A DNA stretch of 64,000 nt from Candidatus Moraniibacteriota bacterium (GTDB lineage: Bacteria; Patescibacteriota; Minisyncoccia; Moranbacterales; UBA1568): the NCBI GenBank assembly GCA_008012175.1, contig SSEF01000020.1, positions 24,002-88,001 of the forward strand, given 5' to 3'. Below, in pieces: positions 546 to 4,921 of this stretch (positions within the stretch are counted from its first letter, which is position 1; each line of letters begins with the position of its first letter). The notes below the pieces were generated by a model, which did no database searches, had not been told where the DNA came from, and saw only the letters and a list, made by a program, of their open reading frames with translations. A program made the position numbers and the translations under genes.

Positions 546-1811
546 CTAAACAGTCTCTCGGGAAATTCTTGCTCCGATACCCGACAACCGATCTTCAATC
601 CGCTCATAACCGCGATCAACTTGGTAAATATCCTCGATTATCGTTTCGCCCGTTCCTACAAGTGCTGCAATGATGAGTGCCGCACCAGCCCGCAGATCAT
701 AGCTCTTGATAACTGTTCCGCGGAGCGGTGTCTTGCCATGTATGAGTATCTGATGCGGATTAAGAACGGTCAGTTTTGCCCCCATCTTTTCGAGTTCAGC
801 CGCATAATTAAAACGACCTTCGAACATCGTATCAAAAATGAACGTGTCTCCGGTGGCTTGAGTCGCAAGAACAGCAAGAGGCGCCTGGATATCGGTCGGG
901 ATGCCAGGGTACGGGCGCGGATCAATCTGGAGAGATGGAGCGGAAAGCACTGGCGCGGGATGGATTGTGATCGCGTCCTCTTCAAAGGTGAAGCGTACGC
1001 CAAACTCGCGCAGACGTTCAAGCACGAGATCAAGATCATCTTCTCGGGCATGTTCAACCGTAATTTCGCTCCCTGTTGCCGCACCGAGGATGAGATAGGT
1101 CGCTGCCTCATTATGATCAGGCATGATTACGTGCTTCGCACCATGAAGATCAGAGCGACCACGGATGGTTATGGTATTCGTCCCGAGACCGGAAACAGTA
1201 GCCCCCATTTTCTCAAGGAAATGGCCGAGGTCGACGACGTGCGGTTCGCAGGCTGCAATCTTAACAGTCGTCTCACCCGGGAGGGCAGCCGCAAGCATCA
1301 TAATGTTTTCTGTCGCTGTCACTGACATTTGCCGCAAAACAACCTTGGCTGGCCGGCGGCCGGTTGCATCAATTACGAAACCTTTTTCTTCGGGCTGGAC
1401 TACGATACCAAGCTTTGCCAGCGCGTCGATATGTGCGTCAACCGGACGAGCGCCGATAACGCAGCCGCCCGGCTGACGCAATTCGAAATGATTGAAACGT
1501 GCGGAAAGCGATCCAAAAAGGAGGATCGAAGATCGAAGACGCTTCACTTTTTCTTGGTCTGCACGAGTCGGATCGATAGCATCCGGCGTGATGGCTACCG
1601 TCCGGTGCCCAAGCCACTCCACTGTAGCCCCTAAACTCTCGATGATTTCAAGCATCCGGAACACATCCTCTATCCGGGGGATGTTTTCGAGCACCGAACG
1701 TTCGCGCGAAAGAAGCGTCGCCGCAATGATCGGCGTCGCGGCATTTTTCAGCCCGTAAACGGGAATACGGCCGGACAGCTTCTTTCCGCCCTGGATTCGA
1801 AAGACTTCCAT
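546..1811 (-). CDS. murA: UDP-N-acetylglucosamine 1-carboxyvinyltransferase MurA
   Basis: 421 aa. The N-terminus FRIQGGKKLSGRIPVYGLKNAATPIIAA and the overall EPT-fold pattern are typical of MurA. It lies next to mreB. Confidence 0.9.
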   Translation of the reverse strand: MEVFRIQGGKKLSGRIPVYGLKNAATPIIAATLLSRERSVLENIPRIEDVFRMLEIIESLGATVEWLGHRTVAITPDAIDPTRADQEKVKRLRSSILLFGSLSARFNHFELRQPGGCVIGARPVDAHIDALAKLGIVVQPEEKGFVIDATGRRPAKVVLRQMSVTATENIMMLAAALPGETTVKIAACEPHVVDLGHFLEKMGATVSGLGTNTITIRGRSDLHGAKHVIMPDHNEAATYLILGAATGSEITVEHAREDDLDLVLERLREFGVRFTFEEDAITIHPAPVLSAPSLQIDPRPYPGIPTDIQAPLAVLATQATGDTFIFDTMFEGRFNYAAELEKMGAKLTVLNPHQILIHGKTPLRGTVIKSYDLRAGAALIIAALVGTGETIIEDIYQVDRGYERIEDRLSGIGARISRETV

Positions 1812-2057
1812 AGACCAGAGTATACTCCAAAAAAAACCTTATTTCAAGGCGCAATTCCGCCTCTTTTCCCTCATGAAAATGATAATCCGCTCATCGACGC
1901 GAAGGACGAGAGCGGCATCATTGAGGGTGGCGGCAGGCCTATTTTAGTGCTGCCGCGTGGGACAGGGACACCTGTTCCAGTATGCTTGAAAGCGCTTTAA
2001 CGCTTTTCTTTTTGTTTTTGTATTCTGTTTTTCGCACGAGAACGATGTAAAAAAAGA

Positions 2058-2083
2058 AAACGGGCGTTCACCCGTTTCTTCAT
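2058..2083 (-). terminator. Putative intrinsic terminator after the DGR RT gene
   Basis: Stem AAACGGG (2058-2064) pairs with CCCGTTT (2071-2077) around a 6-nt loop. On the minus strand it is followed by a T-run; on the plus strand 2044-2057 reads gtaaaaaaagaaaa. It sits immediately 3' of the RT stop codon at 2084. Confidence 0.5.
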
Positions 2084-3151
2084 TTACCTTACCAGTATAG
2101 CAGGTTTTACCCCCTCTGTCAAAGTCATTCTCTCTATCTTTTCCCTCAACCGATACCCGTTCCCATGGCTGAGCAATCCGAGATACGCATAAGCGTTCCT
2201 CTCGTCCAACATCCGAAACATCCTCCGCTTCGTTGATCCCCGCAATACGCGATGATCAGGGAAATGCACCCATCCGAGAAAGTCGACGCCCGAAGCAACG
2301 GCTTTGATCAACACCTTATCAGGATGTAAACAAAGTCCGAGTCGTTCCCAAAGAAATTTCCGGATCAATATCAGAAAACCCTCCAGTTGTTCACAGTCTC
2401 TCGACATGATGACAAAATCATCCGCGTAGCGAATGTAATACTTCGCTTTGAGCTTGTGTTTCACGAATTGATCGAATTCGTTCATGTAAATATTCACGAA
2501 AAGCTGCGAGGTCAGATTGCCAAGCGGTAACCCGATACCCGGTCTCTCTAGAGTACGAAAGCTCCGCATCACTCTTTCCAGCAACCAGAGAATATCCTGG
2601 TCAGGGATCCGGTCACGGAGAATACCAAGCAGTATTTCCTGATCGATCGACGCGAAGAACTTCCGGATATCGCACTTCAAGACCCACGCGGTTCTGGTAT
2701 CGTTACAAGAAATTTTCCTCGCAAACACTCGGAATCGATCAAGCGTCTTGTGCGTACCTTTTTCTTTGCGGCAGGAATACGAATCAGCGATGAAGAGCGT
2801 ATCGAAGAACGGATAGAGTATCCGGTAGATCGCGTGGTGGACCAATCGGTCTCTCACCGAAGCCTTGTGGATATCGCGTGGCTTGGGATCGTTTATTTTG
2901 AAGGCTTGATACCCGCCGTGCTCATACGTCTTGTTTTCTAGGTCTTCGTGGAGTGCGAAGATATGGTCCATGAGACGCGCCTCGAATACCTGGACATCTT
3001 GTTTGTTCTTCTTTCCCTTCAGAAATTCCTTCCATGCCTCAAGAAGATTTTCGAGAGATATGATATCATCGTAAACAACCGTTAATTTCTTCTTTGTTTC
3101 GCTATGGCTCTTCCTGGAGTTACCCCCCCCCGACTTGTACCAGTTTTGCAT
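2084..3151 (-). CDS. DGR reverse transcriptase. The full ORF extends to 3469, but the conserved RT domain begins near 3090 and the likely start is Met107 at 3151.
   Basis: RT motifs are present: ...LGNLTSQLFVNIYMNEFD (the DGR-specific [ILV]GxxxSQ variant of the QGxxxSP motif 4) and YADDFVIMS (the motif 5 catalytic YxDD). Upstream, RDRLVHHAIYRILYPFFDTLFIADSYSCRKEKGTHKTL matches the DGR Brt-like N-terminal region. The first 106 codons of the 461-aa ORF are the antisense strand of the avd-like gene and are probably not translated. Confidence 0.9.
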   Translation of the reverse strand: MQNWYKSGGGNSRKSHSETKKKLTVVYDDIISLENLLEAWKEFLKGKKNKQDVQVFEARLMDHIFALHEDLENKTYEHGGYQAFKINDPKPRDIHKASVRDRLVHHAIYRILYPFFDTLFIADSYSCRKEKGTHKTLDRFRVFARKISCNDTRTAWVLKCDIRKFFASIDQEILLGILRDRIPDQDILWLLERVMRSFRTLERPGIGLPLGNLTSQLFVNIYMNEFDQFVKHKLKAKYYIRYADDFVIMSRDCEQLEGFLILIRKFLWERLGLCLHPDKVLIKAVASGVDFLGWVHFPDHRVLRGSTKRRMFRMLDERNAYAYLGLLSHGNGYRLREKIERMTLTEGVKPAILVR

Positions 3152-3487
3152 AAGATAAAAGATGCGTATCTGTTTTGGTATACTCTCCTTTCTTCGCTTC
3201 CCAAGACACACCGCTACTCTCTCGGCCAGCGGATCGATCGTATCTTCATAGAATGCATCGAGTGCGTTTCGGCAGCCGCTTTTCTCTCGCCACAGGAAAA
3301 GATGCCATATGTCCGCCACGCTATCCGCAAAATCGATACGCTCAAGATTCTCCTGCTCGTCCTCTGGGAAACGAAGTCGATCGATACCAAAAAATATATC
3401 GCGCTTTCCGAAAAGATCGATGAGATCGGCAGGATGCTCGGCGGATGGAATGGACAACTCTCCAAACAAAACTCCTCCCGGAAATGA
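3104..3487 (+). CDS. avd: Avd-like accessory variability determinant. It belongs to the four-helix-bundle family, also annotated as the 23S rRNA intervening-sequence protein family.
   Basis: 127 aa. The C-terminal segment ...KKYIALSEKIDEIGRMLGGWNGQLSKQ matches the conserved Avd/four-helix-bundle C-terminal helix; compare bAvd ...AEVGRILGSWIARVNRK and IVS proteins ...ADEIGKMLNGLI. The N-terminal helix YLFWYTLLSSLPKTHRYSLGQRIDRIF matches the family's helix 1-2 region. The gene is on the plus strand, opposite to the RT, TR and target. Confidence 0.7.
   Translation: MALPGVTPPRLVPVLHKIKDAYLFWYTLLSSLPKTHRYSLGQRIDRIFIECIECVSAAAFLSPQEKMPYVRHAIRKIDTLKILLLVLWETKSIDTKKYIALSEKIDEIGRMLGGWNGQLSKQNSSRK
3123..3131. 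repeat. C9/G9 homopolymeric tract inside the antisense overlap between the avd and RT coding regions
   Basis: The sequence read is ta-ccccccccc-g. The tract covers avd codons 7-10 (T-P-P-R) and RT codons 7-10 counted from Met107 (S-G-G-G). Confidence 0.9.
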
Positions 3488-3505
3488 GAGGAGAAATGAA
3501 GAGAG

Positions 3506-3630
3506 TTGCGAAGCGCAGAGCCGGGTTATTGTCGTTCCAGTTGTTGTCGAGCCAGTTCCAGTTCAAGACAATCTGACCACCGTTCTCGATGAGGTACGGG
3601 ACGTTGAGGTTACCATTGCGGTTCTGCACG
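3506..3630 (-). repeat. DGR template repeat (TR)
   Basis: 125 bp are near-identical to 4030-4154. All 10 mismatches have T on the plus strand of this copy, which is A on the minus (sense) strand. The translated sense strand is Asn-rich (NGNLNVPYLIENGGQIVLNWNWLDNNWNDNNPALRFA), with AAC codons typical of a TR. Confidence 0.88.
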
Positions 3631-3929
3631 AATGTATAAGATGCCGTCTATACCACCGCCCATCGAATACTCTCAGGGTTGAATCGTATTCCGCATCTCA
3701 AATGCGCGAGTATCTTATACCAAGTATCTTCATTTTTTGACCCATTCGATAGGCTCAGGGTCATCCTGAGTTTTATCGAAGGATGAAGTGTCTGCATACA
3801 CCACTCTATCCGAAACGGTGGCCACGGATATTCTCAATGTATGGATACTGGATTCGGCCGCCGACGACCGTAATCACCTGCAAGATTCGCCTACTACCAA
3901 TCCCAGTGTATCAAAAAATGAGAAGTTGA

Positions 3930-3971
3930 AGAAATGAAAACCCCGCACTACCATGTAGGTAAAATGCGGGG
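3930..3971 (-). terminator. Putative intrinsic terminator after the DGR target gene
   Basis: Stem CCCCGCA (3941-3947) pairs with TGCGGGG (3965-3971). On the minus strand it is followed by TTTTCATTTCTTC. It lies 25-55 nt 3' of the target stop codon at 3995. Confidence 0.45.
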
Positions 3972-3994
3972 TCAAAGGACTAAGTATCAAGGGT

Positions 3995-4651
3995 CTAAGA
4001 GACCTGAGATACAGAGCCCTGAGGACTACTTGCGAAGCGCAGAGCCGGGTTATTGCCGTGCCAGTTGTTGCCGAGCCAGCCCCAGCTCAAGACAATCTGA
4101 CCACCGTACTCGACGAGGTACGGGACGTTGAGGTCACCATTGCGGTACTGCACGACTGATTTCCAGAGAGAGACTGCCTTGTCTCCGAAATATTTCCGGA
4201 AGATTTCGATGCCTTGCTTCTGGATTTCTTCGCCATCACGAAGCGACAGACAGCGTTCGAGTATCTTCTTTTCCTTGAGATACTCGTAGAGCTTGTGACC
4301 CTCGATACGTTGGCCATTCTTCTGCACGTCATGGAGCCAGAGGTCGACGGCCCCGAGGTCATACTCGACCGGACCGGTGGATTCCAGTTCCGGATGCATC
4401 ACCAGTTTCACCCAATCGGGATAGACGGGACGGATAGAACGATCGACATGAATGAGGGTGTCAAGCGGTGCTTCGGGTGCCAGAGTCGCTCCCTTCACTC
4501 CTTCACGAAGCACTTCAGCGAAACGTGACCGCCAGAGTTCACCATCGGTACTACCAACCTTGTTGACGGTGTCCAACAAGACTCCCAGTCGTTCTTGTGG
4601 GACACCCACGAGGGCACGGACGATGGGGGCGAGCATGTCATTTTTGGACAT
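3995..4651 (-). CDS. DGR variable (target) protein with a C-terminal C-type-lectin-like variable region
   Basis: 218 aa. The C-terminus ...VQYRNGDLNVPYLVEYGGQIVLSWGWLGNNWHGNNPALRFAS is encoded by the VR. It differs from the TR translation only at Asn/AAY-derived positions. The short GGxxxSWxxxxNNxRxAxR-like tail is typical of CLec-fold DGR targets. Confidence 0.85.
   Translation of the reverse strand: MSKNDMLAPIVRALVGVPQERLGVLLDTVNKVGSTDGELWRSRFAEVLREGVKGATLAPEAPLDTLIHVDRSIRPVYPDWVKLVMHPELESTGPVEYDLGAVDLWLHDVQKNGQRIEGHKLYEYLKEKKILERCLSLRDGEEIQKQGIEIFRKYFGDKAVSLWKSVVQYRNGDLNVPYLVEYGGQIVLSWGWLGNNWHGNNPALRFASSPQGSVSQVS
4030..4154 (-). repeat. DGR variable repeat (VR) at the 3' end of the target gene
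   Basis: Aligned 1:1 with the TR at 3506-3630, there are 10 substitutions and all fall at TR adenines. The 3'-proximal 26 nt (4030-4055 and 3506-3531) are identical and GC-rich, which is IMH-like. Confidence 0.88.
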
Positions 4652-4820
4652 GGTCTATCTCCTTTTTTGCAGGCACTAGCGGGCTCTCGAGAAATTGAGT
4701 TTGCCATAGTAGAGAAGGGCCTACATGAAGCCGCTTTCTGCTATGGCAAAACTGTATGATTTTTAAGGTTCGAAGTACTATCATACACCATTTTAGGTGT
4801 TCTGTCCAGGGTCGAGCAGG

Positions 4821-4858
4821 TCATTGAAAAGAGGCTTGCTACAGCCTCTTTTCAATGA
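4821..4858. promoter_or_regulatory. Perfect 15-bp inverted repeat (hairpin) downstream of trxB and upstream of the DGR target gene
   Basis: TCATTGAAAAGAGGC (4821-4835) and GCCTCTTTTCAATGA (4844-4858) flank an 8-nt loop. Confidence 0.4.
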
Positions 4859-4921
4859 CTCCACTCACATAACCCGCGATCGCTAATTAAGTGCTTACCG
4901 GACAAAAAAGAATGGCGGCAG

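Follow-up and report, generated by a model that had tools for sequence, protein, structure and literature searches.

Does a direct repeat in the genome of a Candidatus Moraniibacteriota bacterium represent the template repeat (TR) and the variable repeat (VR) of a diversity-generating retroelement (DGR), and has this element been active recently? The question was raised by a stretch of 64,000 nucleotides (nt) of contig SSEF01000020.1 (assembly GCA_008012175.1, positions 24,002 to 88,001), hereafter designated as the window and used for all coordinates given below, in which an earlier note had recognized a TR/VR pair with adenine-only mismatches. This claim was borne out by the mismatches themselves, by an adjacent gene for a DGR-type reverse transcriptase (RT), by an Avd gene and by strain variation at TR adenines, and we regard it as close to certain that the window carries a chromosomal, recently active DGR of the sort that typifies Candidate Phyla Radiation (CPR) bacteria. 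The two repeats and the gene to which the VR belongs are located as follows:

3506..3631, minus strand: TR, with 34 adenines and 12 AAY codons in the VR frame.
4030..4155, minus strand: VR, codons 166-207 of the target gene.
4030..4050 (21 nt), minus strand: GC-rich, never mutated 3' end of the VR, sense ACCCGGCTCTGCGCTTCGCAA, resembling an initiation of mutagenic homing (IMH) element; the TR has an identical end at 3506-3526.
3995..4651, minus strand: gene for the target (variable protein) of 218 aa; TXH07328.1, a hypothetical protein from a Candidatus Moranbacteria metagenome-assembled genome (MAG), has the identical sequence.

The two copies align without gaps at an offset of 524 nt and are identical at 116 of 126 positions (92%). 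At all ten mismatches the TR copy displays a T on the plus strand, and thus an A on the sense (minus) strand, facing C, G or A in the VR copy, and the hypergeometric probability that ten out of ten would fall on the adenines of the TR is P=6.8e-7. The first non-A mismatch, at position 3632/4156, marks the 5' boundary of the homology; searches for a non-adenine mismatch within the 126 nt and for indels in the VR copy were both negative. The repeat had been described as 125 nt long with 115 identities and 23 TR adenines: the direct alignment stands, its length is 126 nt, and the adenine count has to be raised to 34, while the ten adenine mismatches, here confirmed base by base, and the quoted translations of both repeats were correct. 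In the target open reading frame (ORF) of 218 aa, the VR occupies the 3' end of the gene and departs from the TR by N169Y, N173D, I180V, N182Y, N189S, N191G (two changes), D194G, N198H and D199G, which are the replacements of N by Y, D, S, G or H, of I by V and of D by G that the earlier note had listed. All TR adenines but one (33/34) occupy codon position 1 or 2 in the target frame, and half of the AAY codons (6 of the 12) are altered in the VR. No second VR was detected in the 64-kb window by a scan allowing any change at TR adenines.

Evidence for activity comes from closely related strains, represented by contigs encoding members of the 90%-identity cluster of the target and by contigs with an identical neighbouring murA; the comparison is thus between assemblies of independent samples. 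The cluster comprises nine proteins from different samples, with residues 1-165 invariant except for two substitutions and a hypervariable VR. Outside the VR, the differences between the strains over about 2.8 kb amount to two positions elsewhere in the target, three positions in the spacer and the length of one homopolymer. Seven distinct VR alleles were found among these near-identical strains, and their variation is confined to positions facing TR adenines (25 of 34, against none of the 92 non-A positions; Fisher p=3e-19), as the population check proposed in the earlier note had anticipated. All 13 same-species contigs with a TR carry it in identical form. Seven VRs on near-identical backgrounds, varying at TR adenines only and accompanied by an invariant TR, argue for recent DGR activity, and such evidence from natural populations is unusually clean for a DGR.

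The same strains delimit the IMH-like end. Although 26 nt at the 3' end of the repeats are identical in this genome, as first reported, two Asn codons within them (4051-4056) vary in sister strains; the last variable position is 4051, and the part that never varies is reduced to the 21 nt of 4030-4050. These 21 nt are the same in TR and VR, and the flanks diverge directly after them, so donor and recipient must be distinguished by their flanks. In all relatives, TR/VR homology stops at ...CGCAA, followed by GT(A/T)AG on the VR side and by CTCTTCATTTCTC on the TR side.

Two genes of the DGR machinery were identified next to the TR:

2084..3151, minus strand: DGR reverse transcriptase, 355 aa from ATG 3151 (RVT_1, E=2e-20).
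3104..3487, plus strand: avd, 127 aa, running opposite to TR, RT and target, starting at ATG 3104 or TTG 3146 (Pfam PF22296 bAvd).
2057..2078, minus strand: terminator-like hairpin after the RT gene, found on both strands by the terminator scan.

The RT contains the motifs LPLGNLTSQL and YIRYADDF (LGNLTSQ and YADD), both invariant in alignment A5, and matches PHROG 1423 (E=6e-109). Its best solved relative is 8ub7_A, a 328-aa chain named 'Reverse transcriptase' (E=5e-47, plus sister entries), well ahead of the group II intron RTs (about 1e-18); the search output gives no organism for this chain, which from its length we take to be the Bordetella phage bRT. NCBIfam contains no DGR RT model, and the best match of the RT in this collection, a group II RT, stayed under the cut-off. 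The avd product was recognized by Pfam PF22296 bAvd (E=5e-12, 46.7 bits for a cut-off of 40) and by PHROG 3206, 'Avd protein of DGR' (E=3e-18). Read along the minus strand, the order is target, terminator-like hairpin, a 360-nt spacer, TR, inverted avd and RT. The neighbouring genes are murA, mreB, murD and genes for a CsoR-like repressor and a thioredoxin-reductase-like protein, and these housekeeping neighbours indicate that the element is chromosomal and not part of a prophage. The RT frame remains open for 106 further codons upstream (3152-3469, minus strand), antisense to avd; as a result, gene callers on sister contigs give a 461-aa RT and never call avd, which is likely to be systematically missing from the public annotations of these MAGs.

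DGRs of CPR bacteria were reportedly first surveyed by Paul et al. in 2017 (Nat Microbiol). Target, TR, inverted avd and RT occur in the same order in 31 of 57 related genomic loci from Patescibacteria, and avd is inverted in every one of the 31 RT-bearing relatives. Over 37 TR/VR pairs, drawn from related loci and same-species contigs and including the pair of the window, 525 of 605 mismatches fall on TR adenines, and the non-A mismatches are mostly found at the ragged ends of the automatic extension. The order TR-(avd)-RT corresponds to architecture B3, which makes up 90% of the set of CPR DGRs (Wu et al. 2017, PMC5758913); with a TR, a reverse-strand avd, an RT and no other accessory gene, the window falls within the definition of B3 and its element is thus an ordinary member of a described class. 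A CPR-restricted DGR clade (clade 2) was further reported to have targets without recognisable domains, with new C-type lectin (CLec) variants to be expected among them (Roux et al. 2021, PMC8144416). Likeness to these systems extends to the host phylum, the chromosomal site, a single upstream target with a C-terminal VR, the position of the inverted avd between TR and RT, and a target lacking any recognisable domain or membrane anchor; no defining difference was found. The target family may or may not fall in one of the six 'unknown VR' classes of Wu et al. (UVR1-6). Several MAGs with close relatives of the cassette (L010-L013, L018, L021-L022 and others) are titled 'uncultured Bdellovibrionales' or 'Candidatus Saccharibacteria'; these taxonomic labels seem unreliable, since synteny and sequence look like those of Moranbacteria/Parcubacteria.

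With the prototype, the DGR of Bordetella phage BPP-1 (mtd-avd-TR-brt), the element shares the adenine-specific TR-to-VR transfer, the RT family, Avd, a TR rich in AAY codons and an invariant, GC-rich 3' end; common to both are also hairpins downstream of the VR and directly 3' of the TR, and a predicted duplex formed by TR-flanking sequences. It differs in gene order and avd orientation, in its host replicon, here a bacterial chromosome and not a phage, and in having IMH and IMH* identical within the repeat. The hairpin after the VR is the following:

3992..4004, minus strand: small hairpin GGTCT-CTT-AGACC of 5 bp, seen in the sequence about 25 nt past the VR and across the stop codon.

Relatives display a hairpin of other sequence at the equivalent site, such as GTGCA-CTTTC-TGCAC, as judged by inspection and without statistics. 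By analogy, GGTCT-CTT-AGACC may be the counterpart of the hairpin that follows the IMH in the Bordetella phage DGR.

How cells control DGR mutagenesis is a matter on which, to our knowledge, little has been established. In other bacteria, simple-sequence repeats (SSRs) act as contingency loci; examples are the poly-G tracts in genes of Campylobacter and Neisseria and, in Haemophilus influenzae, the TA repeats that separate the divergent hifA/hifB promoters. An SSR was identified here at the point where avd and RT meet:

3123..3131, no strand assigned: SSR, a repeat tract located where avd and RT meet head to head, reading C9 on the plus strand and G9 in the RT sense.

This is the longest G/C homopolymer of the 64-kb window. 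It spans RT codons 8-10 (GGG GGG GGT) and lies upstream of the avd TTG start, or within avd if ATG 3104 is used. Its length varies among same-species contigs, with G8 in four independent contigs, G9 in six, G10 in two and G11 in one, and three contigs sharing one VR allele carry runs of 9, 10 and 11. Lengths 8 and 9 were each found in SPAdes-type and Logan assemblies; for 10 and 11, an assembly error is possible. An exact-pattern scan of JGI metagenome contigs for the flanks of the G-run of this species returned 0 matches. Across related loci (window 3123-3131; L002-L008, L146-L155 and L009-L145), an SSR occupies the avd/RT junction in 88 of 92, most of them with unrelated targets. In the metagenome loci, 58 of 80 have a poly-G of 7-12 nt and the remainder have GA, GT or CTGG repeats; in the whole set of 88 tracts, the unit is 1 nt long in 75, 2 nt in 10, 4 nt in 2 and 3 nt in 1, so that a single tract has a unit divisible by three.

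The position of the tract relative to the RT start differs among loci. The start lies downstream of it in about 80% of the 88 loci (an ATG in 56, only a GTG or TTG in 14), the ATG being found at a median of 16 nt past the tract behind its own AGGA-like motif. In the other 20% or so, including the window, the RT frame must cross the tract, and half of these (9/88) have no in-frame start. Frame analysis of the window places ATG 3151 in frame with G9; with G8 or G11, the sole remaining start would be a GTG located 78 nt upstream of the tract, and with G10 a TTG located 73 nt upstream of it. No fixed promoter hexamers were found around the tract across the 88 loci: there is none upstream, and TAnnnT directly follows the tract in just 17, which neither supports nor excludes a role of the tract as a -35/-10 spacer. 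A general function of the G-run as RT Shine-Dalgarno sequence was discarded, as a separate AGGA-like motif is found 8-12 nt past the tract in most relatives and as GT, GA or CTGG repeats replace the G-run in other loci. A sequencing artefact was equally discarded, the tract being internal, with conserved flanks, in about 90 independent assemblies from several pipelines.

A conserved position combined with a free choice of unit and with length polymorphism in clonal relatives is what characterizes contingency loci, and suggests a phase-variable control of the DGR machinery, in which the tract would switch the expression of RT, of Avd or of both. As in known SSR phase-variable loci, an 8-12-nt G/C homopolymer or a di- or tetranucleotide repeat occupies a gene's 5' end or separates two divergent genes, and its copy number differs between near-clonal strains. 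Unlike in those loci, about 80% of the related loci have the tract ahead of the RT start and thus outside the reading frame, and no sharply positioned promoter hexamers flank it. In the literature searched, which did not extend to Paul et al. 2017 or to a 2026 bioRxiv preprint mentioning DGR and poly-G, no paper linking DGRs to such a tract was found.

Could the locus be a relic, in which TR, VR and genes remain from past activity and the target is no longer diversified? The G-run speaks for it: with the RT start upstream of a tract of variable length (8-11) in this lineage, the RT may be out of frame in some strains, and among relatives the nine SSR-bearing loci without an in-frame RT start, together with an RT that is split in L014, point in the same direction. 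Other observations also weigh against a recently active DGR. The RT start codon has no obvious Shine-Dalgarno sequence; avd, although matching NCBIfam NF033474 DivGenRetAVD with E=2e-19, scores 69.6 bits for a cut-off of 80; the IMH-like ends of TR and VR are identical, unlike the Bordetella IMH/IMH* pair; and activity is deduced from differences between assemblies. On the third of these points, identical IMH and IMH* are known in some DGRs (Wu et al. 2017, PMC5758913). A relic is nonetheless hard to reconcile with seven VRs on backgrounds about five single-nucleotide polymorphisms apart over 2.8 kb, with the intact RT, Avd and TR of the window, and with a TR that is perfectly conserved while the VR changes, and we consider it very improbable.

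Still less credible, to the point of being negligible, is an ordinary duplicated fragment or pseudogenised paralogue whose divergence would have settled on adenines by chance. The existence of a direct repeat speaks for it and nothing further does, whereas the values obtained for the single pair (P=6.8e-7) and across strains (p=3e-19), the lack of indels, the adjacent RT and Avd genes and the recurrence of the same pattern in about 30 independent relatives all contradict it. A recently active DGR is therefore retained: its anatomy, the adenine-only pattern seen among natural populations whose TR does not vary, and the families to which RT and Avd belong are direct observations, and it is by analogy that the TR-to-VR transfer would proceed through complementary DNA (cDNA).

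What, then, carries the template? The region around the TR contains several elements pointing to a dedicated RNA:

3905..3913, minus strand: extended -10 promoter element TGATACACT for the TR RNA, a sequence motif.
3632..3898 (267 nt), minus strand: conserved structured 5' domain of the DGR RNA, starting with GGUAGUAGG, 12 helices, with covariation in their support (alignment A8).
3726..3738, minus strand: 5' strand of a predicted TR-bracketing duplex, AAAAAAUGAAGAU, cPRT-Stop-like, from the pairing search.
3494..3503, minus strand: 3' strand of this duplex, CUCUUCAUUU, non-coding, directly after the TR and conserved in all relatives.
3463..3493, minus strand: 8-bp hairpin CTCCTCTC/GGGAGGAG followed by UUUUGUUUG, from the terminator scan.

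A TGnTAnnnT motif ends exactly 6-7 nt ahead of the conserved GGTAGTAGG in 27 of 33 related loci, the gap between promoter element and 5' domain being 6 nt in the window, and the TR RNA would start near this -10 element. The conserved region upstream of the TR measures about 220-265 nt across relatives and runs straight into the TR. In alignment A8, built from 16 loci, the 5' domain has 61 pairs, 36 of them with compensatory changes, and 96.9% of the cells are paired, compared with 36-45% when partners are slid; none of 500 shuffles reached the observed values. A scan of positions 1800-4900 against Rfam gave no match at E<=1, and this '5' domain' of CPR DGR RNAs may represent a new RNA family. 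In the loop of its helix 8, an insertion of about 45 nt (3739-3785, minus strand), itself a hairpin CTCAGGATGACCCTGAG, was seen only in the species of the window and in L010.

In every relative, the TR is directly followed on its 3' side by the motif CUCUUCAUUUCUC, and next come a hairpin with compensated stem changes and a U-run. The sequence of the hairpin varies across relatives, with compensatory changes in 6 of 7 pairs, and in the window its loop includes the avd stop codon (3485-3487, plus strand); it is a putative Avd-binding stem-loop and/or the intrinsic terminator of the TR RNA. The upstream strand AAAAAAUGAAGAU finds its best partner in UCUUCAUUU, just past the TR, in most related loci (190-nt search window), with compensatory changes in L026, L071, L081 and L084, and helix 8 of A8 may be a local alternative for this strand. 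The post-TR motif CUCUUCAUUU is also able to pair with the upstream AAAUGAAGA, again in a cPRT-Stop-like manner. The cPRT Stop is a duplex between TR-flanking sequences, and Avd-binding stem-loops just after the TR, together with a flanking duplex, were predicted in 207 of 278 Avd-containing DGRs, CPR included (Handa et al., bioRxiv 10.1101/2023.10.23.563531). Beyond the TR-proximal hairpin, neither a conserved long-range structure nor a template:primer duplex was found in the 150 nt downstream of the TR, antisense to avd. An 8-bp match CAACTCTC/GAGAGTTG in the window was dropped, since inspection of the relatives showed no conservation of it.

On the strand antisense to the TR (3488-3576, plus strand), the conserved flank GAGGAGAAATG reads as a Shine-Dalgarno-like motif and an ATG 8 nt past the avd stop, and this ATG opens a 26-codon frame across the TR; the conserved RNA motif has probably produced this arrangement as a side effect.

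Judging from these elements, the TR of this genome would be part of a self-contained RNA of about 435 nt, its ends being those deduced from promoter and terminator signals. BPP-1 has a 140-nt Spacer with primer and RT-binding elements downstream of its TR; here, the TR is followed by no more than about 45 nt, with a U-run at their end, and a large conserved structured RNA (about 220-265 nt) precedes it, and by analogy the functions of the Bordetella downstream Spacer may sit upstream of the TR. The accessible papers on CPR DGRs, among which Paul et al. 2017 was not covered, are silent both on an SSR between avd and RT and on a large structured domain 5' of the TR.

RT and Avd of the Bordetella phage DGR synthesise cDNA with misincorporation at adenines. 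A similar sequence of events can be proposed here. An RNA of about 435 nt, made from its own extended -10 promoter, would comprise the structured 5' domain, the 126-nt TR and a short 3' element (conserved motif, hairpin and U-run). The RT and a pentameric Avd would copy the TR into cDNA, misincorporating opposite template adenines, and this cDNA would take the place of the VR, its homologue in the 3' end of the target gene, the direction of transfer being presumably set by the never-mutated GC-rich 21-nt end and by the differing flanks. Up to about 20 codons, mostly AAY, could thus be recoded in the C-terminal beta-hairpin/loop region of a small CLec-like protein, with the scaffold residues (W, G, L, P and PALRFA) kept fixed.

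The protein that would be diversified belongs to a Patescibacteria family numbering more than 200 proteins of about 208 aa, which share the scaffold VPYLxExGxxVVxxWxWLxxxWxxxxPALRFAS. Its transcription unit would be closed by a further element:

3931..3973, minus strand: terminator-like hairpin and T-run after the target gene, seen in the sequence.

The spacer alignment revealed a matching hairpin and T-run after the target in relatives; the automatic terminator scan missed the one of the window because its loop exceeds 8 nt. The target ORF had no sequence match in Pfam, NCBIfam, PHROG or the PDB, so that sequence places it in no known CLec, FGE-sulfatase or DUF1566 family of these collections, and the profile of the target family had none among PDB sequences. 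The structural model predicts a three-helix N-terminal region followed by a C-terminal CLec-like domain. A Foldseek search of the PDB with the first full-length model returned no significant match; CLec-fold proteins, Mtd (1yu0) and TvpA (2y3c) included, are among the structural neighbours of the model, alongside invasin and intimin, FGE-like domains and many animal C-type lectin-like domains (CTLDs). With Mtd and TvpA, the target shares a VR at its extreme C-terminus and variable positions encoded by AAY codons; its variable residues number 19, and its role may be that of a ligand-binding protein.

About 40% of the target-family genes have neither TR nor RT within 5 kb. Such RT-less homologues include L019, L027, L039/L044, L042 and about 20 others, several of which differ almost solely at adenines from a TR on another contig or genome: L019 has mismatches to the TR of L018 at 3 of 86 non-A and 22 of 34 A positions, and L039 to the TR of L044, from the same MAG, at 1 of 96 non-A and 11 of 24 A positions. 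From these patterns, such homologues look like remote targets diversified in trans.

Taken together, tract and RNA lead to a joint reading that we put forward tentatively, leaning on balance somewhat against it: the SSR would be a stochastic, heritable on/off (or level) switch of the diversification machinery throughout the clade, and the template would be carried by a self-contained structured RNA of about 400 nt whose RT-binding and priming functions have moved upstream of the TR. The switch may operate through a frameshift of the RT in this Moranbacteria lineage and through a change of the shared promoter or 5' untranslated region in most others. Neither an SSR switch nor an upstream-permuted TR RNA was found in the DGR literature searched, Paul et al. 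2017 being outside this check.

The DGR itself is one more well-documented example among thousands; the junction tract and the large structured RNA, which look like unreported features of the clade, weigh more. The target family, widespread in Patescibacteria and provided with a confident model, is a candidate for structural and binding studies, and the covariation-backed RNA carries recent cryo-electron microscopy work on the Bordetella DGR RNA over to a differently organised class. The conserved slippery tract between avd and RT, polymorphic in clonal relatives, offers a concrete and cheaply testable hypothesis on regulation; if true, these bacteria would possess a mutator whose own activity is phase-variable.

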